From assembly GCA_945906815.1 (NCBI GenBank), contig CAMDRT010000015.1, positions 1,584-65,583 on the forward strand: DNA of 64,000 bases, read 5' to 3'. This DNA comes from Bordetella parapertussis (lineage in GTDB: Bacteria > Pseudomonadota > Gammaproteobacteria > Burkholderiales > SG8-41). Below, one piece after another: positions 10,773-31,715 of the stretch (position 1 is the stretch's first letter; each line of letters begins with the position of its first letter). Both the position numbers and the translations under genes were made by a program. The notes under the pieces were generated by a model. It saw only the letters and a list, made by a program, of their open reading frames with translations. It made no database searches and was not told where the DNA came from.

Positions 10773-13748
10773 ATGAGGCAAGCCACGCGGTTTTTGTGTG
10801 CTGCAGTTGTGCTATTTGCGGCATCGGGATGTGCGGGTCTCATTTACGAATCCATCTGGGCCCGATACCTTAAGTTATTCCTCGGCCACGCCGCCTATGC
10901 ACAGACCATGGTGCTGTGCCTATTCATGGGCGGGCTGGCGCTGGGCGCTGCCGTCGCGGCCAAGTATGCGGAAAAAATCCGCAATCCGCTGCTGCTGTAC
11001 GCTGCGGTTGAACTCGCCATCGGCCTGTCAGGACTGATTTTCCATGACATTTTTACCTGGGCCATGGCATTTCACTACACCCATTTGCTGCCACTTTCCA
11101 CTGACCCGCTGATCGTCAATGTGATCCAGTTCGCACTGGCGCTGCTGTTGATGGGTCCGCCAACGATCCTATTGGGCACCACCTTCCCGTTAATGACTTC
11201 TGCTGTACTGCGCACCTTACCTGCCGCATCGGGCGACAAGATCGCATTACTCTATTTTTCAAACAGTATAGGCGCAGCCGCCGGCGTGCTGGCAAGCGCG
11301 TTCCTGCTGATAGCGTGGAGCGGATTGCCCGGCACCCTGTTCACGGCAGCACTCATCAATATCGGGGTAGCCCTTTTTGCCTGGCTGTTGGCGAGATCCA
11401 CCCCGGCCACGAATACGCCTGCGCAGGGGCACAAAACCAGCCCTGCCGGTGGAGGGTCCGCGGCCTCTGTGTTACTGCTCGCGACAGCGCTGTTTACCGG
11501 ACTTGCCTCGTTGGTGTACGAGGTGACCTGGGTGCGGATGCTCAGTCTGGTGCTGGGTGCATCCACCCATTCGTTTGAACTGATGCTCAGCGCCTTTATC
11601 ACGGGATTAGCCCTCGGCAGTTTAGCGATTCGGCGATGGATTTCGCGTATCGATGCTCCCTATCGATTTCTGGGCTACGTGCAAGTCCTCATGGGTGTGT
11701 TTGCACTGGGCTCATTATGGGTGTACGGCGAGTCGTTTGAGTGGATGGGCAGCTTGATGCAAGGTATTGCCCGCACCGATCAGGGCTATACGATCTACCT
11801 GATAGCGAGCCACCTGTTGTGCTTCGTGGTGATGCTGCCCACCACCTTCATGGCGGGCATGACACTGCCGCTGCTTACCCATGGCTTGCTACGCGAAGGC
11901 TATGGCGAGCGTTCTATAGGCGCGGTGTACGCCTGGAACACGCTGGGTAGCATCGGCGGCGTGCTGCTGGCGATACATGTACTGATACCCGAGCTGGGTC
12001 TAAAAGCAGCGCTGATAGTGGGGGCGGGCGTGGATATGTTGACTGGCATCGCCCTGCTGTGCGTGGCCGCGGGCACGCTGTTCGAGCCGCTCATAGCAAC
12101 CGCAGCGGCCTTGCTGATAGTGAGCGTATCAGCCTGGGGCATCGTGCTGGATCCGCGCAAGTTGAGTTCCGGCGTTTACCGCTACGCACGCGCGCAGGTG
12201 CTCAGCAATACTGAAGTCATTTCCCATCGCGACGGCAAAACAGCGAGCATTTCGTTGCTGCGCGTGGGCGACCAGCGCTCGCTATTGACCAATGGCAAAC
12301 CGGATGCCTCGATCAAACCCTACTCCGGGCGCCCGGCCCCCGATGAAGTGACCGGGGTGCTGCTTGCGGGTTTGGGTATGCTGCATCACCCGCAGGCCCG
12401 CAGCGCTGCCAATATCGGTCTGGGTTCAGGCGTGACCACACGCATGCTACTCAAGAATCCGCGCTTGCAGTCGGTAGACACCATTGAAATTGAGGCACAG
12501 ATGGTGTCGACAGTGCGCCAATTAAGCGATCAGGTCGGTGAAATTTTTTCCGACCCGCGCAGCCGGATAATCATTGACGACGCGAAGAGTTACTTCGCTG
12601 CTAACCGTTCACGTTACGACCTGATTATTGCGGAACCTTCAAATCCGTGGGTGAGTGGCGTGGCGTCACTCTTTACCGCCGAATTTTATCGCGGCATGCT
12701 AAAGCACATGACGGATGACGGCGTATTCGTGCAGTGGATGCAGACGTATGAGACGGACTACCCGTCGATTTCTTCCGTGATGCGCGCTTTGGGGAGCGCA
12801 TTTCCAAACTACACCGTGTATTCGCCTATAGACGGCGATATCCTGATTGTCGCCTGGAAAAACACACGTCCGCGTGAGCCGGATACCGCATTGTTAGTCT
12901 GGCCCGGTCTCAAGGCAGAATTCACTCGCGTTGGCGTTGAGACCCTGCCGGACCTCGAAGCGTTACGCATAGGCGGTCGGGCGCTGCTGGCGCCCTTAAT
13001 GGCGTCCATTCCAGCAGCGGAGAATTCAGACTATTACCCGTTTCTGGACAGTCGCGCAGCACGCGCCCGTGTTGCGCCTGGCAAGGGCGCCACGCTCGAT
13101 GTTACGCGGTTGGGCGCCTTGCCCTTGGCATCCCTGCTGGAAAGGCGTGCCCCCCCTTACACAGAGACCCGCATGTCAAAATACGCCTACACCACCAAGG
13201 GCATCGCAATGCAAAATGCGCAGGCGCTGCTCCAAGGGCTGATGCCTGTAAAAAGCGCGACGCAACCCCACACCATCAACCGGCTGCAGCTGACTATCCT
13301 GAACGCGTTCTGCAGCGCATCCACTGCGGTTCATCGGGACGATGCGCTGAATGCGTTGCTGGATCTCATCGAAGCCACTGTGCCGTACCTCACGACGACG
13401 GAAGCGCAGCAGATTCTCACGCAACTGCAGCGGGGAAATTGTTTGGCGCGCATCGGCGCCAACGTCGAAACCTACGTAGCGCTACTGGCGCATGCGCTAA
13501 ATCGTAACGGCACAGACATGCGGCAAACAGGTGAGCGCTTACTGAGCCTGAACCCCGCTAACGACGCTAAGGCCGACCGCATGTCCGTGCTGGCGCTGGA
13601 TGCTGCGATGGTGGGCGCAATCCTCGAGGGCAAGCCGCGCGTTGCCACTGCGTTATGGCAAACACATGGCAGCAAAACGGCAGGGGTGCGCCCAGTACCG
13701 CTGGGCATAGAACTGACGCTCGCGCTGGCTGTGCCGCAACGGCAATAA
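10773..13748 (+). CDS. fused polytopic membrane / spermidine-synthase-like (aminopropyltransferase fold) protein with a long C-terminal extension
   Basis: A 991-aa ORF with about 12 N-terminal TM helices, then NIGLGSGVT...YDLIIAEPSNPWVSGVASLFTAEFY, the spermidine synthase family signature. The C-terminal ~300 aa are unassigned. Confidence 0.7.
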   Translation: MRQATRFLCAAVVLFAASGCAGLIYESIWARYLKLFLGHAAYAQTMVLCLFMGGLALGAAVAAKYAEKIRNPLLLYAAVELAIGLSGLIFHDIFTWAMAFHYTHLLPLSTDPLIVNVIQFALALLLMGPPTILLGTTFPLMTSAVLRTLPAASGDKIALLYFSNSIGAAAGVLASAFLLIAWSGLPGTLFTAALINIGVALFAWLLARSTPATNTPAQGHKTSPAGGGSAASVLLLATALFTGLASLVYEVTWVRMLSLVLGASTHSFELMLSAFITGLALGSLAIRRWISRIDAPYRFLGYVQVLMGVFALGSLWVYGESFEWMGSLMQGIARTDQGYTIYLIASHLLCFVVMLPTTFMAGMTLPLLTHGLLREGYGERSIGAVYAWNTLGSIGGVLLAIHVLIPELGLKAALIVGAGVDMLTGIALLCVAAGTLFEPLIATAAALLIVSVSAWGIVLDPRKLSSGVYRYARAQVLSNTEVISHRDGKTASISLLRVGDQRSLLTNGKPDASIKPYSGRPAPDEVTGVLLAGLGMLHHPQARSAANIGLGSGVTTRMLLKNPRLQSVDTIEIEAQMVSTVRQLSDQVGEIFSDPRSRIIIDDAKSYFAANRSRYDLIIAEPSNPWVSGVASLFTAEFYRGMLKHMTDDGVFVQWMQTYETDYPSISSVMRALGSAFPNYTVYSPIDGDILIVAWKNTRPREPDTALLVWPGLKAEFTRVGVETLPDLEALRIGGRALLAPLMASIPAAENSDYYPFLDSRAARARVAPGKGATLDVTRLGALPLASLLERRAPPYTETRMSKYAYTTKGIAMQNAQALLQGLMPVKSATQPHTINRLQLTILNAFCSASTAVHRDDALNALLDLIEATVPYLTTTEAQQILTQLQRGNCLARIGANVETYVALLAHALNRNGTDMRQTGERLLSLNPANDAKADRMSVLALDAAMVGAILEGKPRVATALWQTHGSKTAGVRPVPLGIELTLALAVPQRQ

Positions 13749-15821: not shown

Positions 15822-16580
15822 TCAGTGCGCTTGCTTCGCCTTGATCGGCGTACCGCTCTTGAAGGGCGCGATGCCAACAACGGCTGCAGTTTTTGCATCG
15901 ATGATGACAACGAATTCCGCTGCATGGATGCGGATGGGTTGAAATTTCGCGGACGACTCCCGGTAGCCGCGCTGCGCGAGCCAGGCGTCTATCTCCGCGG
16001 TCTGCGTCGCGTTGGTTTTCTTAAGCTCTGCGATGGACTGCGCACGCTCCAGCAATTCTTTCGCCATCGTTTCGTAAGCGACGTGTACCTGTGGTAAATG
16101 CCCACGCCCAAAGCCTAACTCTTCGAGGTAGTTGGCGGCATAGGTATCTGCGCTAGCCGTGGGCGCCTGGGTGCCCACCCAACGCGGCCCCCACCAGGGC
16201 AGTGTCGTGTTTGCTTTTTCCAGATTGGCATCAGTGACTTCGGTGGCCTGGATGACCTGAAACTTGTCGCCCAGAGCCGCGACGTACACCGGACGAGCTT
16301 CGAGCAGCGTGCTGACGCCATATTCCAGAGCCAGTATCTGTAGCAGCGCGATCATCGCAAGATCGAATTTTAAGTTTTTCTTGCCCGTTTTAAAGACCAC
16401 CAGGGTCAACAGCGGGCCGATAACGACATCGATGCCCACAATCAACAGAAAAATTTCATGCCCGCCTATGGCCAGCAGCATCGGCGCGGGGTACCACACG
16501 AACCAGCAAACAGCCAACAGTAGCAGCCCGACGATCAGGCTGATTACAAAATGAATGCCACTGGCGCGAATTCTGGACAT
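15822..16580 (-). CDS. type IV pilin accessory protein (TfpZ/FimB-like)
   Basis: A 252-aa ORF immediately downstream of the pilins. The N-terminus MSRIRASGIHFVISLIVGLLLLAVCWFVWYPAP...GPLLTLVVFKTGKKNLKFD resembles TfpZ/FimB accessory proteins as I recall them; this is unverified. Confidence 0.5.
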   Translation of the reverse strand: MSRIRASGIHFVISLIVGLLLLAVCWFVWYPAPMLLAIGGHEIFLLIVGIDVVIGPLLTLVVFKTGKKNLKFDLAMIALLQILALEYGVSTLLEARPVYVAALGDKFQVIQATEVTDANLEKANTTLPWWGPRWVGTQAPTASADTYAANYLEELGFGRGHLPQVHVAYETMAKELLERAQSIAELKKTNATQTAEIDAWLAQRGYRESSAKFQPIRIHAAEFVVIIDAKTAAVVGIAPFKSGTPIKAKQAH

Positions 16581-16612
16581 GACAACTACAGGGTTAAGGC
16601 AGGCGTCTGAAT

Positions 16613-16646
16613 AAAAAACCCTCTCCCGCCTTGCGGCGGGAGAGGG
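16613..16646 (-). terminator. rho-independent terminator or attenuator after pilin gene 1
   Basis: A 12-bp GC stem (CCCTCTCCCGCC-TTGC-GGCGGGAGAGGG, 16619-16646) is followed on the minus strand by UUUUUU (A-run 16613-18). It lies between the pilin stop (16761) and the tfpZ-like start (16580). Confidence 0.7.
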
Positions 16647-16760
16647 CGGAGTGTAGATAGAGAAACCCTGTCACGGCCCTGCGCTGACCCCGCTAGCGGG
16701 ATGAGGGCAAGGTGTTAGTGGTTAACTATAGATGCACCCTATTGCATTAGACACCCGTGG

Positions 16761-17201
16761 TTACGGGCAATCACCCGCGCCTGACTTAAAGCCTCGCGTC
16801 GCATTACAAACCGTACCCGTGTTCGTCCACAGCATATTGGCACCACCAGCAGGGATCGTCGGTGTGTTTATGGTTGTAAGTTTCGTGCCGTCAGTTAGCG
16901 TTGCGCCGGTCGTGATAGTAATAACGCCGTTAGTCACCGAGGTTACAGTCGTAATATTTTTAGTGGCGGTTATAGTGGGAATGGCGTTACTGGCGGCATT
17001 ACAACCGGTAAGCGTGCCGATATCGCTGGCACAAACACCGATGGCTTGCCGGGTAGATGCAATTTCCGCAGCAGAGCCGGCGGCGCGGGTGCGGGAAGTG
17101 TAGTCACCGTATTGGGGAATTGCGATGGCCGCCAGAATACCAATAATTGCCACCACGATCATCAGCTCGATCAGGGTAAAACCTTTTTGCATACGTGTCA
17201 T
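16761..17201 (-). CDS. pilA: type IVa major pilin (copy 1)
   Basis: [31 protein letters not shown] is a class III signal peptide with a G/F cleavage site and Glu5. There are four Cys, including the C-terminal C...C loop ([14 protein letters not shown]). Confidence 0.9.
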
Positions 17202-17259
17202 AAAAATTCTCCGTTATGGTTAGACAACAATACCAACTCTCGTTTACGTGCAACACTAA

Positions 17260-17275
17260 AGCAATTGCAATGCCA
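17260..17275 (-). promoter_or_regulatory. sigma-54 (-24/-12) promoter candidate for pilin copy 1
   Basis: The minus strand reads TGGCATTGCAATTGCT, which fits GG-N10-GC and closely matches TGGCAC-N5-TTGCW. It lies ~60 nt upstream of ATG 17201 and 9 nt after the stop of copy 2. Confidence 0.5.
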
Positions 17276-17283
17276 ACCCTAGG

Positions 17284-17721
17284 TTACGGGCAATCACCAG
17301 CACCTGCTTTAAAGCCTCGCGTCGCATTGCACGCTGTGCCCGTGTTCGTCCACAGCAAATTGGCGCCAGCAGCAGGCAGTGTCGGTGTATCAATAGTGGT
17401 AAGGTTTGCCCCTGCGTTGGTGGCGCCCGTAGTAATCCGAATCACGCCGTTAGTCACAGAGGTTACCACCGTAATATTTTTAGTGACGGATATTGTGGGA
17501 ATGGCGTTGGTACCGGCATTGCAACCGGTAAGCGTGGCAAGATCGCCGGCACAAACACCGATTGCACTCCGGGTAGACGCCAGTTCCGCTGCCGACGCAG
17601 CCGCCCGGGCGCGCGAAGAGTAATCACCATATTGAGGGATCGCAATCGCCGCCAGAATGCCAATAATCGCGACCACGATCATCAGTTCAATCAGGGTAAA
17701 ACCTTGTTGCATGCGGTTCAT
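17284..17721 (-). CDS. pilA: type IVa major pilin (copy 2, tandem paralog)
   Basis: [31 protein letters not shown] from ATG 17721, with GGGGGA upstream. It is about four-fifths identical to copy 1 by hand alignment, with one indel. Confidence 0.9.
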
Positions 17722-17773
17722 TAATAATCCCCCATTAATTTTTGATAGCCATACCCACTCGCGTTTAGGAACG

Positions 17774-17789
17774 TGCAATGCTAATGCCG
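17774..17789 (-). promoter_or_regulatory. sigma-54 (-24/-12) promoter candidate for pilin copy 2
   Basis: The minus strand reads CGGCATTAGCATTGCA, which fits GG-N10-GC with a TTGCA -12 element. It lies ~55 nt upstream of ATG 17721. Confidence 0.45.
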
Positions 17790-18041
17790 AGTCGTACACA
17801 ACATATGCATATACAAATAGATCCCATAATGCCAGAACAAATCTATTTTTCAGAACTATTTTTCTCCGGGCTTTTCCTCTGAATTACTGTTTTTAGGCCC
17901 AGCGTATGCGTAATAACGTAGCACCAAAACCACCTTGTGGACTTACGCGGCAGCTGTTAGCCAACTACGCCGCCTAGCCTGTAAATTCCAGCGCCCATTC
18001 AGGGCGTACCGTGACAATTTTTGTCACATCGAGGCATAACC

Positions 18042-19661
18042 TCAAGCCACAGGTGGTGGCACGTAACCCGGCACCTTGCTCAAATCCACATGATCAATTT
18101 GCTCCGGCGACATATATTGCAGCGCGTAGGCTTCGTACACCCTCTCCCACATGAAAATATCGAATAAATCCGGGTCTATATGCTGCCCCAGCTTCATTTT
18201 TCCCAGGATACTGAGCGATTCGGTGAGCGTTTTACCCTTTTTGTAGGGCCGGTCTTTGGCGGTCAGCGCCTCGAAAATGTCGGCGATGCCCATGCAACGC
18301 GCCTGCACCGACATTTGCGCGCGGGTCAGGCCGCGCGGGTAACCCTTGCCGTCCATGCGCTCGTGGTGGCCGCCTGCGTATTCGGGCACGTTGGCAAGGT
18401 GCTTGGGCCAGGGCAGCGCTTCCAGCATCTTGATGGTGACCTCAATATGGTGGTTGATGACGGTGCGCTCTTCCATCGTTAGGGTGCCCGCGCGTATGGT
18501 CATATTTTTGACTTCGTCATCGGACAAAAAACTGCATTCGTTCCCCGCCGGATCCATCCAGCGGTATGCGCTTGCAATGTGCTTGACGCGTTCCACGTCC
18601 TCGTCGCGCATGAACTCGCCGCCGATGTTGGTGTGGCGCAAGAAAGCGCGATCGTCGTCTATCGACTGGTATGTTGCTTCGAGTTGCGCCGCGCTTAACT
18701 GCCCGCTCAAGACGCCTATCCGCAGGTCGCGCTTGACGACCTCGAAGCGGGTATCCAGCAAGTTGATCCGGTCGTAAATCGTTTCCAGCTTGGTCGCTTT
18801 GTCCACCACATGCACCGGTGTGGTGATCTTGCCGCAATCGTGCAACAGACCCGCGATGCGCAATTCATAGCGGTCGCGTTCGGTCATCGTAAAACTCTTG
18901 AGCGGGCCGACGTTGGATTTGGTCACTGCGTCGGCCAGCATCATGGTGAGCTCGGGAACGCGATTGCAGTGCCCGCCGGTATACGGTGATTTATCATCAA
19001 TCGCGGTATTGATCAGGCTGATGAACGATTCAAACAGCTCTTCCAGATGATTAATCAGCAGGCGCTGGGTTAGCGCAATCGCTGCCTGCGAGGCCAGCGA
19101 TTCCGCCAGCCGTTGGTCCACCGCAGAGAACGGCTGCACTTTCCCGTTGTCTCTGTCTTTGGCATTGATCAGCTGCAGCACACCGATGATTTCGTTTTCA
19201 TGGTTCTTCATCGGCACCGTCAGAAAAGACTGCGAGCGGTAACCGGTCTTGGTGTCGAATGCTTTCATGCCGCTGAAATCGAACCCCATCTCGGTGTAGG
19301 CGTCGGCGATATTGACCGAGCAGTCTTTGTGGACGGCATACGTCGCCACCATGTGCAGATTGGGCTTGCCCTCGTCCGTAAACAAGTGGATCGGGTAAAA
19401 CGGAATCTCGACGCCGGTAGTCCCGCCCATCGCGATGCCCAGCGTATCGTTGCGCACAATATCGAACTTGAGCATATGGTCGTCGGCCATATGGTAGAGC
19501 GTGCCGCCATCCGCGTGGGTGACGTCTTTCGCCGCCAGCAAGATGGCCTCCAGCAGCTTGTTGATATCACGCTCGCGCGACAGCGCAACACCAATGCCCA
19601 GCAGTTGTTCGAAGCGGCCGGAAAGATCCGTGTGATCCGGCGCGGGCAGGCTTGGGTTCAT
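18042..19661 (-). CDS. GAF-domain HD-GYP phosphohydrolase (c-di-GMP phosphodiesterase type)
   Basis: An N-terminal GAF domain (..DTKTGYRSQSFLTVPMKNHENEIIGVLQLINAKD) is followed by an HD domain (LLHDCGK) and GGHHERMDGKGYPRGL. ATG 19661 (MNPSLPAP) avoids overlap with the upstream gene; GTG 19697 is an alternative start. Confidence 0.85.
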   Translation of the reverse strand: MNPSLPAPDHTDLSGRFEQLLGIGVALSRERDINKLLEAILLAAKDVTHADGGTLYHMADDHMLKFDIVRNDTLGIAMGGTTGVEIPFYPIHLFTDEGKPNLHMVATYAVHKDCSVNIADAYTEMGFDFSGMKAFDTKTGYRSQSFLTVPMKNHENEIIGVLQLINAKDRDNGKVQPFSAVDQRLAESLASQAAIALTQRLLINHLEELFESFISLINTAIDDKSPYTGGHCNRVPELTMMLADAVTKSNVGPLKSFTMTERDRYELRIAGLLHDCGKITTPVHVVDKATKLETIYDRINLLDTRFEVVKRDLRIGVLSGQLSAAQLEATYQSIDDDRAFLRHTNIGGEFMRDEDVERVKHIASAYRWMDPAGNECSFLSDDEVKNMTIRAGTLTMEERTVINHHIEVTIKMLEALPWPKHLANVPEYAGGHHERMDGKGYPRGLTRAQMSVQARCMGIADIFEALTAKDRPYKKGKTLTESLSILGKMKLGQHIDPDLFDIFMWERVYEAYALQYMSPEQIDHVDLSKVPGYVPPPVA

Positions 19662-19677
19662 GCTGGCGTTATCTCGC

Positions 19678-22053
19678 TTACTTGATACACACAGCACGCA
19701 CCTGCTGTATATCGGTGATGCCCTGCAACACTTTTTCTATGCCGTCCTGCTTCAGCGTGCGCATGCCTTCTTCGAGCGCGGTCGCGAACATTTGCGCGAC
19801 GCGGGCATGCTCCTGAATGTCTTTTTTCACGCGGTCGGTACCGATCAACAGTTCGTGCAAACCCACACGCCCTTTGTAACCCGAGTCGCCACAGGTATCA
19901 CAGCCCTTGGCCGAATGCAGCGTGAGATGGCCGTTCTGATCGCCAAACTCCTTGACCCAGAATGCCAGCAGCTTCGCGCGCTCGCCCTGCGGATCTTTTT
20001 TCCACGACTCGGTGTTCATCAGTTCGAGGGCGTATTCTTCGAGCAGCGCTTGCACTTCTTCCTCGGTTGCCGGATGCGCCTGCTTGCACTTCACGCACAG
20101 GCGCTTGGCCAGACGCTGCGCCAGTATGCCCAACAGTGCGTCGGCAAAATTAAACGGGTCCATGCCCATATCCAGCAAACGGATAATCGATTCCGGCGCG
20201 CTATTCGTATGCAGTGTTGCAAACACCAGGTGGCCGGTGAGCGACGCCTCGATGCCGGTGGACACGGTCTCCTTGTCGCGCATCTCGCCGACCATGATGA
20301 TATCGGGATCGGCGCGCAAAAACGCCTTCATAATGATGGAAAACTCCAGTCCCGCTTTTTTGTTGATTTGAACCTGGCGCAGGCCTTTCTGGGTAATTTC
20401 AACCGGGTCTTCGGCGGTCCATATTTTAGTGTCGGGCTTATTCAGATAGCCGAGCACGGAATGCAGCGTGGTGGTTTTGCCCGAACCGGTGGGACCGCAC
20501 ACGAAAAACAGTCCGTAGGGCTTTTCAATGGCCGTCTTGCACTGCTGCAGATTGCGCTTCGAAAGACCCAGCTTTTCCAGCGGAATCGGTTCGCCTGCCG
20601 CCAGAATACGCATCACGATGTCTTCAACACCGCCTGCAGTCGGAATGGTGGCGACCCGCAATTCAATATCCAACGGCCCGAATTTTTTGAATTTGATCTT
20701 GCCATCCTGCGGCTTGCGGCGCTCCGAAATATCCAGGTCACACATGATCTTGAGCCGTGCTGCGAGCGCGTTACGGTAACTCGCGGGTATCTGTATATAG
20801 GGCGTCAGCGAGCCGTCCTTGCGAAAGCGGATTTCCGTCTTGCCTTTGCCCGGATAGGGTTCGATATGAATATCCGATGCCCCCTGCTGATAGGCGTCGA
20901 GAATGACCTTGTTCACCAGCTTGACGAGTTCGTTGTCACTGGCGGCGCTCGCGATGTCGTCGCCGCCGGGTTCCAGGCTTTCTTCGTCGTCAAGATCACC
21001 GAGCAGGTCGTCAATGTTGCCGGAATCCGCCGACATGGCGCCAAACAACTGATCCAGCGTGGCAATAAATTCACGCTGCGTCGTCACCCGATAGACAATT
21101 TTGTTCTTCGGGTACACATTGACAACCATGCGGGAGGTACGCGTGCGCTCCACATCGGGCGTCACCACCACAATGCCGTCCTTGGTGTCGTCCACAGGCA
21201 CCCACTGATTGGTCAGACAAAACTCGCGACTCATGTTGCGCAGCAGGTCGGGCGGCTTGATGCGGTCCTGCTTGAAAGGTTCGTAGGCAACGCCAAAATA
21301 CGCTGCCAGCGCGGCGCCGATCACCGGCACTTTTACCTGGAACTCGTCGATCAGCACCGTTTCCAGATCGATGTTCTTGCGCCGGGACGAGCGTTGCGCA
21401 AGTTCGAGCTCTTCCGCGGAAATCACCGCATCGGTCACCAGTGCGTCGTACTTGCCGCGCACCTGTATGCGACCGCTCGCGCCCTGGCGTTGCCGGAACG
21501 CAATCGCCATGGTTTCGCACAGGTGCAATACGCCTTCTTCCATGTACTGCGCAAAGGGCTGCCCGCTCTTGGTGTTGATAATCTGAATGATGCCAATCAG
21601 ATCGTTGGTCTTGGCTTCCGCTATCGGCGCCACCAGCATCTGCCGGGTGCGGTAGCCCGTTTTCGCGTCAACCGCCCTCAGAAAATTTAATTTCGGGCTA
21701 TGCACCTTGAGTTCAGCGGCATCGTAGACGTCGCAAATATTGAGTACACGCCTGTTGACACCTACAAACCCGGCCACCGACTGTTCGTTGATGGGAAGCT
21801 TGATGTCCTTGAAGGAATTCAGTCCGGTCTTGACCTTGGAAATAATCGAGCCCTTGTCTTCGCTGGTCAGGTAGATCGTGAGCCGGTCTGCCAGAAACAA
21901 GCCGCAAAGCTCGATCGAAACCTCGGTGAGAATCTCCTCGATATCCTTGGTGCCATGAACCTTGTTGGTCAGCGCTTGCAGACGCTGCTGGAAACCCAGC
22001 TTTTCAGCCAGAGGATCCTGCGCTGCGGGTTTGCTTTGGAGTACTGAACTCAT
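19678..22053 (-). CDS. PilB/GspE-family secretion ATPase with an N-terminal GAF domain
   Basis: A 791-aa ORF. It has a GAF domain (aa ~30-190), a T2SSE_N-like domain, Walker A GPTGSGKTTT, IIMVGEMRD, a His box TGHLVFATLHTN and a tetra-Cys motif (CVKCKQ...CDTCGDSGYKGR). Confidence 0.85.
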   Translation of the reverse strand: MSSVLQSKPAAQDPLAEKLGFQQRLQALTNKVHGTKDIEEILTEVSIELCGLFLADRLTIYLTSEDKGSIISKVKTGLNSFKDIKLPINEQSVAGFVGVNRRVLNICDVYDAAELKVHSPKLNFLRAVDAKTGYRTRQMLVAPIAEAKTNDLIGIIQIINTKSGQPFAQYMEEGVLHLCETMAIAFRQRQGASGRIQVRGKYDALVTDAVISAEELELAQRSSRRKNIDLETVLIDEFQVKVPVIGAALAAYFGVAYEPFKQDRIKPPDLLRNMSREFCLTNQWVPVDDTKDGIVVVTPDVERTRTSRMVVNVYPKNKIVYRVTTQREFIATLDQLFGAMSADSGNIDDLLGDLDDEESLEPGGDDIASAASDNELVKLVNKVILDAYQQGASDIHIEPYPGKGKTEIRFRKDGSLTPYIQIPASYRNALAARLKIMCDLDISERRKPQDGKIKFKKFGPLDIELRVATIPTAGGVEDIVMRILAAGEPIPLEKLGLSKRNLQQCKTAIEKPYGLFFVCGPTGSGKTTTLHSVLGYLNKPDTKIWTAEDPVEITQKGLRQVQINKKAGLEFSIIMKAFLRADPDIIMVGEMRDKETVSTGIEASLTGHLVFATLHTNSAPESIIRLLDMGMDPFNFADALLGILAQRLAKRLCVKCKQAHPATEEEVQALLEEYALELMNTESWKKDPQGERAKLLAFWVKEFGDQNGHLTLHSAKGCDTCGDSGYKGRVGLHELLIGTDRVKKDIQEHARVAQMFATALEEGMRTLKQDGIEKVLQGITDIQQVRAVCIK

Positions 22054-22323
22054 TTCGCCCCCACCACTATGATTTTGTTCAACACCAACCCAACCCGTCT
22101 AGAACTCGAAAACCTGCCGCTGTTGCAGCACGCTCGGATTCCAGCGGGACGCGCCGCGCGCGATCTCCTGCTCCTGCGTGGCGTCGGGAACCGCCGTTTC
22201 CACCCTGATATAGCGAAGATTACCAATAGTATTCACTACGCGCCACCAATCACCGCAACTGCAGGTATCGCCGGAAAATACCAGGCTTGCCTTGCCCGAG
22301 CGCTAGCGGCGAAAACCGCATCG

Positions 22324-24546
22324 TTATTTCGTCTCGAAAGTAAACGCACCGTCCCAATCGGGACCTGGACTCTTCTCGCGCAGCACCGGTATGCGCGCCA
22401 GAAACAACTCGTAGAGCTTGTCTCCCGGCGACGTTTCCTGCAAATGCCGCAACTGCGTCTCGGCCTTATCCCACTCCTGCCTGCGATAAGTGGCTAATGC
22501 CTCCTGATAAACTTCCAGCACCTTGATGATGTCCGCGCTGACCTCGCTGCGCAGCCCGAGCGGCTGATAAATTGTAACCGCGTTTTCCTTGCCCTTGACG
22601 CGCACCCGGTCCAGTTCACGGAAAACCATATCCGGCGCCGCCGCCATGGTGTCTTCGCCCACGATAACATTGGCGCCGTATTCCTTGGTGATACCTTCAA
22701 GACGCGACGCCAGATTTACCGCATCACCCATTACCGTGTAAGCGCGCCGGATCGTCGATCCCATGTTGCCCACGCTCACGCGACCCGTGTTCAGGCCCAC
22801 GCCGATTTTGATTTCAGGCCAGTTTTTTGCTTTGAATTTTGGCTGCAATTCATTCAGCACACGATGCATTTCGAGACCCGCAAGCACGCCCGTTTGCGCA
22901 TGCGCGGCATTGGCAACGGGTGCGCCCCAGAACGCCATAATGCAATCGCCCATGTATTTATCAATCGTGCCGTGATGCTTGAAGATCACATGGGTGAGGG
23001 GTGTCAGGAACTCGTTCATCAATTCCGACAGCGCCTTGGGATCCAGCCCTTCTGAGATAGTGGTGAATCCGCGCACGTCGGTAAACAGCACCGTACACTC
23101 ACGCGAAGTCGGTTCAAACGAAACATTACTGGGGTCCTTCGCCATCTGTGCGACGAGTTCTGGCGGTATATATTGCCCGAACAGTCCGGTAATCAGCCTC
23201 TTGCTGCGCGATTCGGTGAAATAGCCCCACACCGTATTCAGCGTATAGAGCGCGAATATCAGCAACACATTGCCCGCCAGCGGCAATACAAAATTCGCAT
23301 AATGGTACAAAGCGAGATTGACGCCGATAACCAACCCCGCAATAGCGAGGATCACCACGGTTGCCTGGACAATACTCAAGAATGGCAACAGCACCGCCAG
23401 CACCAAGCCGATCAGGACGATGACCATCAATTGTGCGCCGTTCGCATACGCCGGATCGCGCTTTAGTTTCTCGTCCAGCATGCCGGCAACGAGATTGGCG
23501 TGCGCCTCCACCCCAGGATACACGGCGTCTACCGGCGTCACCCGAGAATCGAGCAACCCCGGCGCCGAGGTAGCGACCAACGCTATCTTGCCGCGCAGCT
23601 CGGCTATATCAATCCGGTCATTCAATACATCGGCGATGGATATATATTTAAAACTGCCACGCGGGCCGCGATAAGGAATCAACGCCCGCGCATTATTGTC
23701 CACGGGAATCTTCAACCCGCCGATGGAGATTTGCTCGAGTGTCGCTTCGCCGCCGGCATAGTCCTCGAATTCCAGCTTGACCGCAGGCATGCCTAAGTAG
23801 CTACGCGTCACCGCCAGCGAAAGCGCTTCGTAGTATTTGCCCTGGAAAGGAATCACCAGAGGCACCTTGCGCAACACGCCATCGGCATCATTCGTGGGAT
23901 TAAAGTGGCCGCCGCTGGCCGCGGTGTTTTGCAGGACTGCTATGTTACCGCTATACCCTGAGCGGACCTCTTCTTGCGGGATCTTGCGCCCACGAAGATC
24001 CGCCTCGGTAAACACCGGCGAGGGCAGCAAGCCTTTGAATTCGCCTTCCTGATTAAAAGTATAGCCAAGCACCACCTTGCGATTGCGCAGCTTGTCGGCG
24101 AATATGGCATCGTAGTCCAACTGTGGACGCAACTTGGCGAGCGCGCTCTGAAACTGCGGCACGCCGCTCAACTCCCCGTTTGCCAGGCGGTCGAGCACCC
24201 TGACGCCCGACGTTTCATCACGCTCGGCAAACACCACGTCAAAACCCAGCACTTCGATCTGGTACTGGTCAAACAGCTTGTCGACCATCAGTGCGAGCCG
24301 ATCGCGCGGCCACGGCCAGCGCCCTTCGCCGCCGTGTTCTCTTTCCTTGAGACTTTTCTCATCGATATCGAGTATGACAATTTTCGGATCGACGCCGCCC
24401 GGCATGAGAAAGCGCAGGCGCGTGTCGGACGCGAGGTTCTCGAGCTTGCTGATGAACAGCAGTTCATAATCCACGCCGCGCGCATGAACAAAGAACGCCG
24501 CGACTATAGCCAGCCCCATGATAATCCGCAGCCCATGTTTTTTCAT
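22324..24546 (-). CDS. CHASE2 sensor / class III adenylate-guanylate cyclase
   Basis: An N-terminal TM plus periplasmic CHASE2 domain (GEGRWPWPRD) and three TM helices are followed by a cyclase domain (FTDVRGFTTISE, IDKYMGDCIMAFWGAP, GLNTGRVSVGNMG...MGDAVNLASRLE). The Lys in IDKYMGD hints at ATP specificity. Confidence 0.85.
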   Translation of the reverse strand: MKKHGLRIIMGLAIVAAFFVHARGVDYELLFISKLENLASDTRLRFLMPGGVDPKIVILDIDEKSLKEREHGGEGRWPWPRDRLALMVDKLFDQYQIEVLGFDVVFAERDETSGVRVLDRLANGELSGVPQFQSALAKLRPQLDYDAIFADKLRNRKVVLGYTFNQEGEFKGLLPSPVFTEADLRGRKIPQEEVRSGYSGNIAVLQNTAASGGHFNPTNDADGVLRKVPLVIPFQGKYYEALSLAVTRSYLGMPAVKLEFEDYAGGEATLEQISIGGLKIPVDNNARALIPYRGPRGSFKYISIADVLNDRIDIAELRGKIALVATSAPGLLDSRVTPVDAVYPGVEAHANLVAGMLDEKLKRDPAYANGAQLMVIVLIGLVLAVLLPFLSIVQATVVILAIAGLVIGVNLALYHYANFVLPLAGNVLLIFALYTLNTVWGYFTESRSKRLITGLFGQYIPPELVAQMAKDPSNVSFEPTSRECTVLFTDVRGFTTISEGLDPKALSELMNEFLTPLTHVIFKHHGTIDKYMGDCIMAFWGAPVANAAHAQTGVLAGLEMHRVLNELQPKFKAKNWPEIKIGVGLNTGRVSVGNMGSTIRRAYTVMGDAVNLASRLEGITKEYGANVIVGEDTMAAAPDMVFRELDRVRVKGKENAVTIYQPLGLRSEVSADIIKVLEVYQEALATYRRQEWDKAETQLRHLQETSPGDKLYELFLARIPVLREKSPGPDWDGAFTFETK

Positions 24547-24633
24547 GTGGATACTTTACTTAAAACGCAGCTCGCAGTTTGCCCTTACGATGCCTAGCGC
24601 AGCCGCGGGTGTATGCCTGTGGCACCCTTAAGA

Positions 24634-25365
24634 CTACCTGAAGAAAAATTCCATTTTTACCCCGGCGATTTCGATCACATCATGATCGCCCAGAAAATGC
24701 GCCTGCGCGTCCAGTTGCTGATGGTTTAACACCGGGTAATTCACGCCCTCCACGTGTGTAATGAAGTACCCCTGCGGGCGCCTGGCAATCACCGCCACCT
24801 GCACGCCGGGCTTGCCCAGCGTGGTGAGATTTTTGCTTAAAGGCGCCTCTTTGCCGGCACCCGGACCGCTCATGATCTGTATCCACGCTTGCGCTGCGGC
24901 AGCTGGTACAGCGGGGGCTGCGGGCTGGGGCGCCATCGTCGCTTTGGGTAGCGGCAGCGTTAACGCGTCGGCTTGCACTGCGAGGGCCGGCGCAGCGGGC
25001 GCACGCTGGGCCGCGGGCGGCGCATGCAACGCCGTGGTGCGCTCAAAGTCTTCGCTCGATGCCTGATCCTCCAACGGCGCGTCGCTCACAAAATGAAGCG
25101 TGTATTTACCGATTTCGATAACGTCGTTATGCTGAAGTATGTGTTTTTTGACCGGCTTGCCGTTGACCCTAGTGCCGTTGGCGGAACCCAAATCCTCCAG
25201 AAACGAATCGTTCAATATAGTCACGATGCGCGCGTGCTCGCTGCTGAGCGCCCTATTCTCGATCTGAATGTCATTGTGCGGCTTGCACCCGATCGTCACG
25301 CGCTCCTGATCCAGATTCACCTCCCGCATCACCGCGCCTTCAAGACTGAGTATCACCTTAGCCAT
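24634..25365 (-). CDS. FHA-domain protein (N-terminal FHA, P/A-rich linker, second FHA-like C-terminal domain)
   Basis: VTIGCKPHNDIQIENRALSSEHARIV...GSANGTRVNGKPV...NDVIEIGKYTLHF is a classical FHA domain. The start at ATG 25365 overlaps the PP2C stop by 8 nt. Confidence 0.75.
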   Translation of the reverse strand: MAKVILSLEGAVMREVNLDQERVTIGCKPHNDIQIENRALSSEHARIVTILNDSFLEDLGSANGTRVNGKPVKKHILQHNDVIEIGKYTLHFVSDAPLEDQASSEDFERTTALHAPPAAQRAPAAPALAVQADALTLPLPKATMAPQPAAPAVPAAAAQAWIQIMSGPGAGKEAPLSKNLTTLGKPGVQVAVIARRPQGYFITHVEGVNYPVLNHQQLDAQAHFLGDHDVIEIAGVKMEFFFR

Positions 25366-26197
25366 GATTATTTCCCCGCCTTTGTTTAAACCCATGTTTC
25401 AAACGCGCGCTTAAACCCGCTGACGCCTGATCCACCTTACGTACATGCACCAGGATCACTGAAATATTGTCGCGCCCGCCGTTGTCGTTGGCCTGCTGCA
25501 CCAGTTGTTGCGCCGCCAGCGTCAGGTTGGATTTCAACGACGATACGGTCAAATGTATCTCCTCGTCAGACACCGTGTCGTAGAGTCCGTCGGAACACAG
25601 CACGTAAATGTCACCCGCCGCCACTGCATGCGTGTGCACTTCGGGCACCACATTCAGATCAATGCCGCAAGCACGCGTGACCAGATTTTTTTTCTTGGAG
25701 GTGCGCGCCTGTTCATAGGTCATCAAGCCGGCGTCGATTTGGTCCTGTACCCAAGAGTGGTCTCGCGTGAGCGGGGTCACCGCGGCGCCGCGCACGCGAT
25801 AACAACGCGAATCCCCTAAATGGACCACCGTCACGCGGTCGCCATGCCAATAGGCGATGACCAACGTGGTACCCATGCCGCTATACTGCGGTTGGCTTTG
25901 CGCCGCGGTATAAATCGCGCTATTCACTGTGGAGGCCTGCGCGGCCATCAATTGTTGCACCGCTTCATCGCTCAGCCCGTGCAAGGCCTGATCAGCGGAA
26001 AGCTTGCGCATTGCTTGCGGCACCATCGCCACCGCGATGCCGCTCGCCACTTCGCCGGCATGGTGGCCGCCCATGCCATCGGCAAGCGTCGCCAATCCGA
26101 GATCCACATCTGCGGCAAGGCTGTCTTCATTGTGCGCGCGCACCCGTCCCACGTCGGTTGCACTGGCCATCTCGAATTGCTTGCTTGCCATGCTCAT
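25358..26197 (-). CDS. PP2C-family Ser/Thr phosphatase
   Basis: ATDVGRVRAHNEDS, LADGMGGHHAGEVAS, VLCSDGL and ANDNGGRDNISVILV are PPM motifs. Confidence 0.85.
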   Translation of the reverse strand: MSMASKQFEMASATDVGRVRAHNEDSLAADVDLGLATLADGMGGHHAGEVASGIAVAMVPQAMRKLSADQALHGLSDEAVQQLMAAQASTVNSAIYTAAQSQPQYSGMGTTLVIAYWHGDRVTVVHLGDSRCYRVRGAAVTPLTRDHSWVQDQIDAGLMTYEQARTSKKKNLVTRACGIDLNVVPEVHTHAVAAGDIYVLCSDGLYDTVSDEEIHLTVSSLKSNLTLAAQQLVQQANDNGGRDNISVILVHVRKVDQASAGLSARLKHGFKQRRGNNHG

Positions 26198-26203
26198 CGT
26201 TGG

Positions 26204-26537
26204 CTACCAGGCCATGCGGAACACGAGCTGCGCCGTGGCGTCCCTGGTAGCCGCCACATGGCCGCTGGCCAGGGGGTAGCGCGTCACCCCAAGCGACCAC
26301 CTATCCGCATGTCCTCCAACCATTTTGCCCTGCAGCTGTGCGGGCGTGCAGGCGCATGTACGAGGGCGTCCCCAGTAGCCTGCTGGTTTTGGTTTTTGAG
26401 CCATCGGTGATCCGCGCAGTGCCAAAATCCGTGACCTTTACGCTGTCGGACTCAGGATCATACATGACGTTGGGCGGCTGGATATCGCGATGCACCGCGT
26501 AGTGCTTGTGGGCGAGTAGAGGACTTTCACCTTCAAG
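26204..26537 (-). pseudogene. decayed Hanks-type Ser/Thr protein kinase (catalytic-loop-to-subdomain-IX fragment, frameshifted, N-lobe missing)
   Basis: One minus frame reads LLAHKHYAVHRDIQPPNVMYDPESDSVKVTDFGTARI..LLGTPSYM (HRDxxxxN, DFG, GTPxYM). The next kinase segment, PAQLQGKMVGGHADRWSLGV, appears only in a second frame (to 26204). There is an in-frame TGA at 26538-40, and only ~90 nt separate it from the preceding gene, so the Gly-loop and VAIK lobe are absent. Confidence 0.6.
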
Positions 26538-26562: not shown

Positions 26563-26591
26563 AAGAAAAAGGGCCGTGGAATCCACGGCCC
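26563..26591 (-). terminator. rho-independent terminator of the fmt-like gene
   Basis: GGGCCGTGG-AAT-CCACGGCCC (26571-26591) is followed on the minus strand by UUUUUCUU (A-run 26566-70). Confidence 0.6.
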
Positions 26592-26629
26592 CTGGCAAGG
26601 AACAACGCCACATATTGCTTGGGCGTCAC

Positions 26630-29243: not shown

Positions 29244-29852
29244 ATGACCCAGCTTGCGCTGCACCCCCAGTCCAAAATCATACGCCTGCAATTGCGGCAA
29301 AACCTGGTGCTGACCAACCTGGGCGTGGCGCAATGGAACGAATTTGAACCGTTGCTGGAAATTATCGACTACACCAAGGGCGAAACACTGGAACTACAGG
29401 GCACGCACGCGATGGAGCAGTATTTCGTCATCGATGGCATTTTAAAACGGACGGTCTCCAATGCCCAGGGCAAGGAAATGATTTTGCGCTTTGCCGCGGA
29501 AAGCGACATCGACACCAGTTACGCCGCGTGGCGGCTGAAAATGCCGATGCCCTATTCGATACGCGCGGTAACCAAAGTGCGTGCGGCCAAGCTCTCGATG
29601 CTGCAGTGGGCGGCGTTTCTCGAACGGCATGCCAAAATCAAGGGCGAGTTCGAGCTCGAAGTGATGAAGCTGATGAGCGAAGTCATGGCACACACCATCA
29701 CGCTGCATCTGTTGAATGCGCCGGGACGGGTGCAACGCTTTATGCGCAAACACGCTGATCTGGTCGCACGACTACCCAAGAAAGAACTGGCCTCTTATTT
29801 GAATTTATCACCGGAAACGCTCAGCCGATTGAAGCGGCGCGGGAAGATTTAG
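29244..29852 (+). CDS. Crp/Fnr-family transcriptional regulator (cNMP-binding-like domain plus C-terminal HTH)
   Basis: A 202-aa ORF with beta-roll-like YFVIDGILKRTVSNAQGKEMILRF and a C-terminal HTH, ELASYLNLSPETLSRLKRRG. Confidence 0.75.
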   Translation: MTQLALHPQSKIIRLQLRQNLVLTNLGVAQWNEFEPLLEIIDYTKGETLELQGTHAMEQYFVIDGILKRTVSNAQGKEMILRFAAESDIDTSYAAWRLKMPMPYSIRAVTKVRAAKLSMLQWAAFLERHAKIKGEFELEVMKLMSEVMAHTITLHLLNAPGRVQRFMRKHADLVARLPKKELASYLNLSPETLSRLKRRGKI

Positions 29853-29978: not shown

Positions 29979-31715
29979 ATGACAACTGACGCACCCTCAC
30001 CCGCACAGACCGACGGATTCCATCTGCTCATCGATGCGCTCAAACTCAACGGCATCGACACCATCTTTGGCCTGCCCGGCATCCCCATCACCGACCTCAC
30101 CCGCATGGCGCAGGCCGAGGGCATACGCATGATTTCTTTCCGCCATGAGCAAAATGCCGGCCACGCCGCTGCCATCGCCGGCTTCCTGACGCAAAAGCCC
30201 GGCATCTGCCTGACGGTATCCGCCCCCGGCTTTCTCAACGGACTTAACGCACTGACCAATGCCACCACCAACTGCTTCCCGATGATCCTCATCAGCGGCT
30301 CCAGCGAGCGCGAGATCGTCGATCTGCAACAGGGCGATTACGAAGAGATGGACCAGTTGGCCATCGCCAAGCCCTTGTGCAAAGCGGCCTTTCGCGTGCT
30401 GCACGCAGAGGACATCGGTGTGGGCGTCGCTCGCGCCATCCGTGCCGCAGTCTCCGGTCGTCCAGGCGGCGTCTACCTCGATCTACCAGCCAAGCTGTTC
30501 GCGCAGAGCATGGATGCAGAAGCCGGCAGAAAATCGCTGATCAAGGTGGTCGATCCCGCGCCGCGCCAGATTCCGGCGCCGGACGCGGTGCAGCGCGCGC
30601 TGGATCTTTTGAAAAACGCCAAGCGTCCGCTGATTGTGCTGGGCAAGGGTGCCGCCTATGCGCAGGCCGACGCGGCGATCCGCGAACTGGTCGAAAAAAC
30701 CGGCATTCCGTACCTGCCGATGTCCATGGCCAAGGGCCTGCTGCCCGACACGCACGAGCAGTCCGCAGCCGCCGCGCGCTCCTATGTGCTGCCTGAAGCA
30801 GACGTAGTGATGCTGATCGGTGCACGCCTGAACTGGCTGCTGTCGCATGGCAAGGGCAGAACCTGGGGCGGCAAATCCCCCAAGGACTGGGGTGGTCAAA
30901 AATACGTCCAGATCGACATTTCGCCGCAGGAGGCAGACAGCAACGTGCGCATCGACGCACCGGTGGTCGGCGACATCGGTTCCTGCGTAGCGGCCATGCT
31001 TAACGGCATTAACGCCTCAGGTGGCAGTTGGCCCAAGCCCTCCGCAGACTGGCTGGGCGCCATAGACCAGCGCAAGAGCACCAACATCGCGAAAATGGCC
31101 GAGACGCTGGCCAAAAATCCCGCGCCGATGAATTACCACAGCGCGCTCAATGTCATGCGCGACATCATCAAAGCCAACCCAGATGCCCTGCTGGTCAACG
31201 AGGGCGCCAACGCACTCGACTTCACGCGCAGCATTGTCGACATGTACCAGCCGCGTAAGCGTCTGGACGTCGGCACCTGGGGCATCATGGGCATCGGTAT
31301 GGGTTTTGCCGTCGCGGCCGCCGTGGTCAGCGGCCAACCGGTGATCGCGGTGGAAGGCGACAGCGCCTTTGGCTTCTCCGGCATGGAAGTCGAGACCATC
31401 TGCCGCTACAACCTGCCGGTGTGCGTGGTGGTCTTCAATAACAACGGCGTCTACCGCGGCACCGACGTCAATCCCAGCGGCGGCACCGACGTGGCGCCCA
31501 CGGTGTTCGTCAAAAATGCGCGTTACGACAAGCTGATGGAGGCTTTCGGCGGTGTGGGTGTACATGCCACCACCCCGGCGGAGTTGCGCAAGGCCGTGGA
31601 AGAGGCTGTCCGATCGCGCAAGCCTACGCTGATCAATGCAGTCATCGATGAAACCGCTGGCACTGAGAGCGGCCGCATCACCAGCCTGAATCCGACCGCC
31701 GCGAAAAAGAAATAA
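29979..31715 (+). CDS. oxc: oxalyl-CoA decarboxylase (ThDP-dependent)
   Basis: [27 protein letters not shown]...[12 protein letters not shown]...[19 protein letters not shown]...[22 protein letters not shown] matches OXC closely. Confidence 0.92.

Follow-up and report, generated by a model that had tools for sequence, protein, structure and literature searches.

Two routes are known by which second messengers control type IV pili. Cyclic diguanylate (c-di-GMP) acts through MshEN domains or FimX-PilZ adaptors, and cyclic adenosine monophosphate (cAMP) acts through CRP-type transcription factors, as in the CyaB-Vfr/Chp system of Pseudomonas aeruginosa and the Cya1-SYCRP1 system of Synechocystis. 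A different type of switch operates on the type VI secretion system of P. aeruginosa, where the serine/threonine protein kinase PpkA, the PP2C-type phosphatase PppA and the FHA protein Fha1 form a threonine-phosphorylation circuit. Here, we analyzed a stretch of 64,000 nucleotides from Bordetella parapertussis (assembly GCA_945906815.1, contig CAMDRT010000015.1, positions 1,584 to 65,583 of the forward strand; the whole stretch is called the window below) that contains a cluster of signalling and pilus genes, among them a PilB-family ATPase fused to a GAF domain. In our reading, this cluster is a degenerate form of a cyclic-nucleotide signalling island that is conserved in Betaproteobacteria and would control type IV pilus output; we assign to this reading a probability of about 0.58.

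The cluster lies on the minus strand and is described from position 26593 down to position 15822, all coordinates being positions in the 64-kb window. Domain calls were made with Pfam and NCBIfam profile searches, and NCBIfam scores were read against curated cutoffs. A preliminary description of this DNA had listed the genes of the cluster; every gene, domain and minus-strand placement on that list was reproduced by the calls of open reading frames (ORFs) and domains, as were the reported spacings (a 6-nt gap, an 8-nt overlap and a 16-nt gap) given internal ATG starts. The 5' boundary of the cluster is a terminator-like hairpin of the upstream formyltransferase-like (fmt-like) gene (26569-26593, minus strand), with an 11-bp stem containing eight GC pairs and followed by a T run.

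The gene at the heart of our reading encodes a hexameric ATPase of 791 amino acids with GAF, MshEN-like and T2SSE regions (19678-22053, minus strand; Pfam T2SSE, E = 5e-115; MshEN, E = 8e-10). PilB is its best family match in NCBIfam, and the PilB proteins of Myxococcus xanthus and Geobacter are its best matches in the PDB. The catalytic and zinc-site motifs are present (GPTGSGKTT, DPDIIMVGEMRD, TGHLVFATLHTN and C653/C656/C718/C721), and Walker A, Walker B, the His box and the four zinc-site Cys are invariant in 31 aligned members of the family. The closest relative is a metagenome contig (L081) whose ATPase is 94% identical to that of the window, and comparison of the two genes yielded a ratio of nonsynonymous to synonymous substitution rates (dN/dS) of 0.14.

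Vibrio cholerae MshE and M. xanthus PilB, which belong to the same ATPase family, bind c-di-GMP through their MshEN domain (PMC5013675, PMC10333796). As in these proteins, the window ATPase is predicted to read a nucleotide second messenger through a module fused to the N-terminal side of the pilus-extension motor. The preliminary description had drawn this analogy to c-di-GMP control through the N-terminal domain; the logic is indeed alike, but the mechanism is not. The MshEN-like region is retained, with an alignment to M. xanthus PilB that begins at residue 7, but a regular expression for the 24-residue c-di-GMP motif defined for MshEN (PMC5013675) matched 0 of 80 family members. In the window ATPase, aligned to M. 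xanthus PilB, G-K-Y is found in place of RLG and I-D-L in place of RIG, and Val and Phe occupy the conserved Gly positions. A phmmer search of the PDB with the isolated MshEN-like region (residues 191-341) returned nothing, and a match to PilB appeared only with the ATPase domain attached. The window ATPase further differs from MshE and PilB by an extra GAF domain of the type that binds cyclic nucleoside monophosphates (cNMPs), placed before the MshEN-like region. Since this domain is added and the c-di-GMP motif is missing, the predicted ligand is cAMP or cyclic guanosine monophosphate (cGMP), not c-di-GMP.

The GAF domain itself points in the same direction. Its best match in the PDB is Anabaena CyaB2 (1ykd, E = 3e-23), and PDE2A (GAF-B, 1.5e-10), PmGH, PDE5 (2e-8) and PDE10A (2e-7) are also matched, whereas the first match from a protein not recognised as a cNMP binder is at about 3e-4, some 19 orders of magnitude weaker than the best one. 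The GAF domain of the neighbouring HD-GYP protein likewise matches the GAF domains of PDE5 (1e-16), CyaB2 and PDE2. The ATPase segment VDAKTGYRT aligns with VDDSTGFRT of PDE2A, which we take to hold D485, T488 and T492, the Asp and the two Thr that grip the cyclic phosphate. Across 80 family members, at least 95% keep V, D, T, G, Y and R of the pattern VD-x2-TGYRT and at least 80% keep the second Thr; D-KTGYR is common to the ATPase GAF and the HD-GYP GAF. Where PDE2A has KVFDG, with an Asp that presumably contacts the guanine, the ATPase has KVKTG, and CyaB2 is likewise non-Asp at this position. The missing Asp weakly favours cAMP. Both domains thus share with the GAF domains of Anabaena CyaB1 and CyaB2 and mammalian PDE2, PDE5 and PDE10 the D...TG[YF]R[TS] signature, and their assignment to the cNMP-binding group of CyaB2, PDE2, PDE5 and PDE10 is supported at the sequence level, but their fusion partners are a secretion-superfamily ATPase and an HD-GYP domain instead of a cyclase or a class I phosphodiesterase (PDE). 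By inference, cAMP is the best-supported predicted ligand of both.

The second GAF protein is encoded directly downstream of the ATPase. This GAF-HD-GYP phosphodiesterase has 539 amino acids from the ATG at 19661 (18042-19661, minus strand; Pfam GAF, HD and HD_5, the last with E = 2e-41), and its dN/dS against L081 is 0.16. The HD-GYP motifs are complete, with LLHDCGK, GGHHERMDGKGYPRG and IADIFEALT aligned to PmGH and HHERMDGKGYP also present. PmGH is the best PDB match (4mcw, E = 2e-25), followed by V-cGAP3 (5z7c), a phosphodiesterase for cyclic GMP-AMP, while the window protein is a predicted c-di-GMP phosphodiesterase. The same GAF-HD-GYP architecture is found in Tlr0485, which is activated by cAMP (10.1101/2021.11.05.467447; PMC10124867). 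The window protein shares with Tlr0485 and PmGH this architecture and the complete HD and HHExxDGxGYP motifs, but differs from them in an insertion of about 80 residues within the HD-GYP domain and in its setting, as its gene lies 16 nt downstream of the GAF-ATPase gene, within a module that encodes a cyclase and a PDE of its own.

That cyclase is encoded upstream of the ATPase (22324-24546, minus strand). It is a protein of 740 amino acids with a CHASE2 domain (E = 5e-52), a transmembrane region and a catalytic domain (Guanylate_cyc, E = 1e-22), the latter with CyaB of P. aeruginosa as its best PDB match (3r5g, E = 4e-36). Aligned to 3r5g, the class IIIb set is complete, with two metal-binding Asp, Lys, Thr in place of Asp, and the transition-state Asn and Arg (FTDVRGF, GTIDKYMGD, AYTVMGDAVNLASRLE). 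The motifs GTIDKYMGD and AYTVMGD carry Lys and Thr, respectively, at positions where the guanylate cyclase Cya2 (2w01) has Glu and Gly in the same alignment. By this Lys/Thr signature, the protein is classed as a class IIIb adenylate cyclase; its dN/dS against L081 is 0.16. A class IIIb membrane cyclase whose cAMP is linked to pilus function is also found in CyaB-Vfr/Chp and Cya1-SYCRP1. Those systems act on a CRP-family regulator and on gene expression, in contrast to the receivers predicted here, which are fused to a motor ATPase and an HD-GYP domain. That cAMP stimulates the motility of Synechocystis is mentioned in PMC10124867.

Between the cyclase and the ATPase, the window contains a stretch of 270 nt without an ORF (22054-22323). 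Using intact orthologues in tblastn searches, we found in it the remains of a cNMP phosphodiesterase of class II, which has a metallo-beta-lactamase fold (22172-22323, minus strand; 45-48% identity over 58-60 amino acids, E = 3e-16 and 6e-14), including the C-terminal end ...LQQRQVFEF. Compared with L081 by blastn, the gene has suffered three internal deletions. About 60 codons remain and the HxHLDH region is gone, so that the window copy itself no longer qualifies as a class-II PDE. The intact orthologues have about 255 amino acids with a metallo-beta-lactamase fold, match PF02112 (PDEase_II) with E-values from 8e-12 to 9e-14, contain the HxHLDH motif (THSHLDHVTS), and have yeast PDE1 as their best PDB match. 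No signal peptide was found on these orthologues, which we read as cytoplasmic. Judged by these alignments, what looks like an intergenic gap is what remains of a class-II cNMP phosphodiesterase gene.

In 31 of 81 betaproteobacterial loci, a further gene with a CAP-type cNMP-binding domain (PF00027, E = 6e-21) and a rhodanese domain stands between the PDE and the ATPase genes. It encodes about 350 amino acids (for example L038 8909-9985 and L026 8908-9948, also L028, L039 and L044), and neither the window nor L081 has it. A 336-aa ORF in one of these loci (L026 8994-10004), first taken as a conserved gene without known function, turned out to be a wrong frame of this cNMP-binding and rhodanese gene. 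The window holds another Crp-like protein of 202 amino acids about 3 kb from the cluster (29244-29852, plus strand; cNMP_binding, E = 2e-8), flanked by frc (formyl-CoA transferase) and a thiamine pyrophosphate enzyme resembling oxalyl-CoA decarboxylase (29979-31715). It could be a further cAMP receiver or simply the regulator of an oxalate operon.

Conservation of the neighbourhood had been named beforehand as a test able to refute the proposed pilus switch. A scan of species-representative genomes gave 595 tblastn-confirmed relatives of the ATPase, of which we analyzed the best 80 loci, all full-length or nearly so and all betaproteobacterial. Neighbours were sought by tblastn with the window proteins, and the rates given here count only loci with enough flanking DNA. 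The neighbourhood proved to be strongly conserved. The most conserved partner is the class-II cNMP phosphodiesterase directly upstream of the ATPase (71/76 loci), followed by the GAF-HD-GYP protein downstream of it (67/72, with 64 on the same strand and the expected side). The CHASE2 cyclase was found upstream in 50 of 64 loci (47 on the same strand and expected side), the PP2C phosphatase in 49 of 59 (all 49 so placed), the FHA protein in 47 of 61 (all 47), a downstream pilin in 39 of 58 (37), and the CHASE2 kinase in 33 of 52. Order and orientation are kept across Burkholderiales, Gallionellaceae, Nitrosomonadales, Rhodocyclaceae and Chitinimonas, and gene order is retained even where the partner proteins are down to 45-70% identity. 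Because the same order recurs in 80 loci of several betaproteobacterial orders, the arrangement is far beyond chance.

The carriers of these 80 loci include Burkholderiales, Gallionellaceae/Sideroxydans, Nitrosomonadales, Rhodocyclaceae, Methylophilaceae, Noviherbaspirillum and Herminiimonas as well as the cultured Chitinimonas viridis and Parachitinimonas caeni, and more than 120 database clusters share at least 77% identity with the ATPase, each with GAF, MshEN and T2SSE. The flanks of L081 match those of the window, with frc and the fmt-like gene on one side and moaC and an M48 peptidase gene on the other; L081 retains the PDE, has a kinase split into two ORFs, and carries a single pilin. 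The kinase is missing from other lineages in which PP2C, FHA and the remaining genes are present (for example L009, L030, L031, L036 and L057), and reduced versions occur in Nitrosomonadaceae, consisting of PDE, ATPase and HD-GYP (L048) or of PDE and ATPase alone (L068). Since such kinase-less and reduced forms exist, partial versions of the module can persist. A variant arrangement was seen in four loci from Noviherbaspirillum and other metagenome-assembled genomes (L047, L055, L067 and L078), where HD-GYP and PDE, in three of the four also the cyclase, are encoded on the other strand upstream of the GAF-ATPase, with no PP2C, FHA or kinase. In the Chitinimonas and Parachitinimonas isolates, Hsp70-like and DnaJ-like genes are located directly upstream of the CHASE2 kinase (L041 59-2172, L070 ~1773), which was not observed in the other loci.

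The pilus side of the cluster in the window consists of two prepilin genes and an accessory gene. Type IVa prepilin copy 1 has 145 amino acids with the ATG, read from the sequence, at 17721 (17284-17721, minus strand; N_methyl, E = 1e-10), and copy 2 has 146 amino acids (16761-17201, minus strand; N_methyl, E = 2e-10). The two are 82% identical and show the features of type IVa pilins, with short leaders, a G|F cleavage site and Glu+5 (MNRMQQG|FTLIEL in copy 1 and MTRMQKG|FTLIEL in copy 2) and a C-terminal C...C pair. A sigma54-type -24/-12 element of the form GGCAY-N5-TTGCW precedes copy 1 (17774-17788, minus strand) and copy 2 (17260-17274, minus strand); the pattern has no other match in the 64-kb window, and both elements are on the minus strand, each upstream of a pilin ATG. 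A tandem duplication (16761-17788) takes in the pilin and the sigma54-like promoter, and both copies align to the single pilin of L081. The two genes are thus probably sigma54-driven major pilin genes that are transcribed on their own, and given these promoters they are not simply the tail of one operon. Behind copy 2 lies a strong hairpin resembling an intrinsic terminator (16618-16647, minus strand; 13-bp stem with 10 GC pairs, then a T run), and then the gene for a pilin accessory protein of the TfpX/TfpZ family with 252 amino acids (15822-16580, minus strand; NCBIfam NF041437, 221.5 bits against a cutoff of 200). Its orthologue in L081 is called FimB/TfpZ, and its dN/dS is 0.13. The pilin region has the lowest GC content of the window (0.526 in 16001-18000).

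Several observations weigh against the reading of the cluster as a pilus-controlling cyclic-nucleotide island. The first group concerns the ATPase. It scores 470 bits against the PilB equivalog cutoff of 675.65 (TIGR02538) and 430 against the GspE cutoff of 630, which places it by sequence in a paralogue clade separate from canonical PilB. It never adjoins pilC or pilD, and no second T2SSE gene was found within +/-10 kb in 81 betaproteobacterial loci. An AlphaFold2 model of the full-length protein with 31 close homologues was unusable (mean predicted local distance difference test score 50.7, predicted template modelling score 0.29). The preliminary description had noted that the ATPase stands apart from pilC, pilD and pilMNOPQ; this held for the whole window, where none of these genes, no second T2SSE and no other pilus gene was found outside the cluster, and no pilC, pilD or other machine gene is among the called genes of L081. 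We therefore considered that the ATPase might power a T2SS-like (type II secretion) system or a DNA-uptake fibre, or might not be a motor at all but a regulatory paralogue in competition with canonical PilB for the platform. Besides the scores and the missing machine genes, the lack of a downstream pilin in about one third of the loci with enough flank speaks for this. On the other side stand the best family and PDB matches to PilB, the T4a major-type pilin with a sigma54-like promoter and the TfpZ gene that follow in the window, and the frequent pilin in the relatives. We regard this alternative as highly improbable and read the ATPase as an accessory PilB paralogue that would use a presumed pilus machine encoded elsewhere.

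The second group concerns the ligand and the reach of the module. The NKFDE motif is only approximate in the window GAF domains, in contrast to those of CyaB2 and the mammalian PDEs, with N-T-K...F...M-E in the ATPase and N-A-K...F...D-Q in the HD-GYP protein. An N-terminal GAF together with the MshEN region was found in 194 cluster representatives at E < 1e-30, some with two or three GAF domains, and the homologues from Desulfobacterota (Desulfobacterales), Acidobacteriota and Nitrospinales (42-48% identity) are orphans. About 74 distant loci lack PDE, kinase and pilin, and a match to the cyclase domain only occurred in just two of them. The GAF-ATPase, then, does not need the module. When we looked for the module around the distant GAF-ATPases of Desulfobacterales and others, it was absent, and a Desulfoluna isolate has unrelated neighbours; the full island is thus betaproteobacterial, whereas the fused architecture is broad. 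In a Nitrospinales metagenome-assembled genome (L153, ~6057, ~9069 and ~12173), two tandem genes have ATPase domains 55-56% identical to that of the window and are accompanied by a third T2SSE-family gene on the same strand.

These points bear on the possibility that the GAF domains bind another metabolite or only dimerise, and that the genes cluster because they are regulated together, not because a ligand passes between their products. As a class, GAF domains have many different ligands, that of the PmGH domain is unknown (10.1101/2021.11.05.467447), NKFDE is imperfect, and distant GAF-ATPases occur with no cyclase or PDE nearby. However, the best cNMP-binding match of the ATPase GAF outscores the first GAF domain from a protein not recognised as a cNMP binder by some 19 orders of magnitude, and the residues aligned to the cyclic-phosphate contacts are conserved. 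In addition, the two genes kept most often beside the ATPase encode a cNMP phosphodiesterase and another protein with this type of GAF domain, and the CAP-type protein accompanies them in 31 loci. We consequently hold a different ligand to be quite improbable and retain cyclic-nucleotide sensing as the preferred reading.

The third group concerns the state of the window copy. At its 5' end, the cluster contains the relic of a CHASE2 receptor serine/threonine kinase gene (26210-26513, minus strand; Pkinase, E = 1e-9), of which only subdomains VIb-IX are left. The fragment comprises HRDIQPPN...DFG...GTPSYM (positions 120-164 of the 263 of the Pkinase model), and its roughly 100 codons align with a frame change to residues 403-501 of the kinase-domain ORF of L081. 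About 2.3 kb are deleted at the kinase compared with L081, including the upstream intergenic region. As the native upstream region is lost, the expression of the remaining window genes is uncertain. The intact orthologues are CHASE2-transmembrane-Hanks kinases of 856-887 amino acids with CHASE2 and Pkinase domains, so that the decayed Hanks kinase of the preliminary description is indeed decayed, but its ancestor is to be specified as a CHASE2 receptor kinase. In L081 (2670-5212), the CHASE2 kinase is already divided into two overlapping ORFs of 282 and 565 amino acids. This suggests that the decay of the kinase predates the large deletion in the window, unless the split in L081 is an assembly frameshift.

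The kinase relic is followed by a PP2C-type Ser/Thr phosphatase of the Stp1 family (25358-26197, minus strand; NCBIfam NF033484, 234.6 bits against a cutoff of 230), which has the motifs DGMGGH, SDGL and GGRDN and a dN/dS of 0.20, and by a double-FHA adaptor (24634-25365, minus strand; Pfam FHA, E = 1.5e-19) with a canonical N-terminal FHA domain, a Pro/Ala linker and a conserved C-terminal FHA-like domain. In the window, the Arg of the FHA domain that binds phosphothreonine (residue 27) is replaced by Cys (IGR to IGC, IGCK), while it is Arg in 56 of 56 orthologues; the Ser, His and Asn are still present. The dN/dS of the FHA gene is 0.37, the highest of the cluster. The lost Arg, this elevated ratio and the kinase relic indicate that the phosphothreonine arm is decaying in this genome, and the earlier proposal that FHA and PP2C provide phosphothreonine input to the cyclase is not supported for the window copy. 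The ancestral arrangement resembles PpkA-PppA-Fha1, in that a receptor kinase, a PP2C phosphatase and an FHA adaptor are encoded beside an export ATPase system. It differs in that the sensor is CHASE2 and the neighbour is a cyclase with a pilus module; in the window, a further difference is the reduction of the kinase to a relic and the loss of the FHA Arg.

The whole copy might accordingly be a decaying and possibly silent remnant that no longer works as a signalling unit. The frameshifted kinase fragment with its large deletion, the split kinase of L081, the reduction of the PDE to about 150 nt by three deletions, and the changed FHA protein all fit this view. However, the genes for PP2C, cyclase, ATPase and HD-GYP have kept their full length and every catalytic motif, with dN/dS against L081 (0.14-0.20) near the 0.09-0.11 of flanking housekeeping genes. 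The retained genes are under purifying selection compared with the closest relative. Furthermore, the lineages without a kinase keep PP2C, FHA and the rest, and minimal versions occur in Nitrosomonadaceae. We consider a dead remnant unlikely; the cyclase and the two GAF effectors look maintained in the window, in line with a degenerate but still partly intact signalling island.

In the proposed mechanism, the ancestral input would consist of two CHASE2 membrane receptors, the Ser/Thr kinase and the class IIIb adenylate cyclase, together with PP2C and the double-FHA adaptor, and the kinase/FHA arm would act on the cyclase. The cytoplasmic class-II phosphodiesterase would reset the cAMP signal, which would be read by the CyaB2/PDE2-like GAF domains on two effectors, the PilB-family ATPase and the HD-GYP phosphodiesterase. 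The GAF-ATPase may serve as an extra pilus-extension motor that docks on a pilus machine encoded elsewhere, and the GAF-HD-GYP protein may provide crosstalk from cAMP to c-di-GMP, as in Tlr0485. Downstream, one or more sigma54-driven major pilin genes and the TfpZ accessory gene would complete the island. What is left in the window would be the path from the CHASE2 cyclase through cAMP to GAF-PilB and GAF-HD-GYP, plus the duplicated pilin. In this scheme, we infer cAMP as the ligand, its effect on the activity of the ATPase and of the HD-GYP protein, the pilus-assembly output, and the action of the kinase/FHA arm on the cyclase. The cyclic-nucleotide-gated pilus switch of the preliminary description is supported in part: the conserved neighbourhood, the cNMP-type GAF domains, the adenylate-cyclase signature, the PDE and CAP-type neighbours in relatives and the precedent of Tlr0485 are in favour, while the phosphothreonine arm is degenerate and the PDE is destroyed in the window.

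A more specific version of this mechanism is tentative and in our view somewhat doubtful. In it, GAF-PilB would be an extension motor gated directly by cAMP and the centre of a self-contained microcircuit of CHASE2 cyclase, class-II PDE, cAMP-activated HD-GYP protein, optional CAP-rhodanese protein, and CHASE2 kinase, PP2C and FHA. With such a circuit, many environmental Betaproteobacteria would respond to an extracellular ligand of CHASE2 by a post-translational switch in piliation and would at the same time lower c-di-GMP.

The remainder of the 64-kb window contains genes of oxalate/formate, urea and tricarboxylate metabolism. An Rfam scan revealed no riboswitch or other RNA within the cluster, and scans of the cluster for sigma70 promoters and terminators were at background level, with the exception of the two strong hairpins. 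The sole Rfam match in the window is 5_ureB_sRNA (RF02514, 105 bits; 42920-43203, minus strand), antisense to the 5' end of the gene for the urease alpha subunit (42771-44468). An ORF of 991 amino acids (10773-13748, plus strand) has a spermine/spermidine-synthase domain confined to its middle (residues 530-682), and its counterpart in L081 consists of several short genes.

We found no description of a GAF-fused PilB or GspE, or of a module of CHASE2 kinase, PP2C, FHA and cyclase, in the open-access literature, which is not proof of absence. The components all belong to known families, and that second messengers can gate pilus ATPases is not a new concept, but direct action of a cyclic mononucleotide on the motor would be a novelty. 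If the more specific version of the mechanism is true, this would be the first case of a cyclic mononucleotide that acts directly on a secretion-superfamily ATPase. A cAMP-type GAF domain on the motor would constitute a third and faster control route of type IV pili, and the adjacent GAF-HD-GYP protein would tie cAMP to c-di-GMP. The module is widespread, being carried by all 80 loci analyzed and occurring in iron oxidisers, nitrifiers, activated-sludge Rhodocyclaceae and cultured Chitinimonas, and natural loss variants such as the window copy could serve comparative tests. Overall, the island would supply an output for the poorly understood CHASE2 sensor domain.

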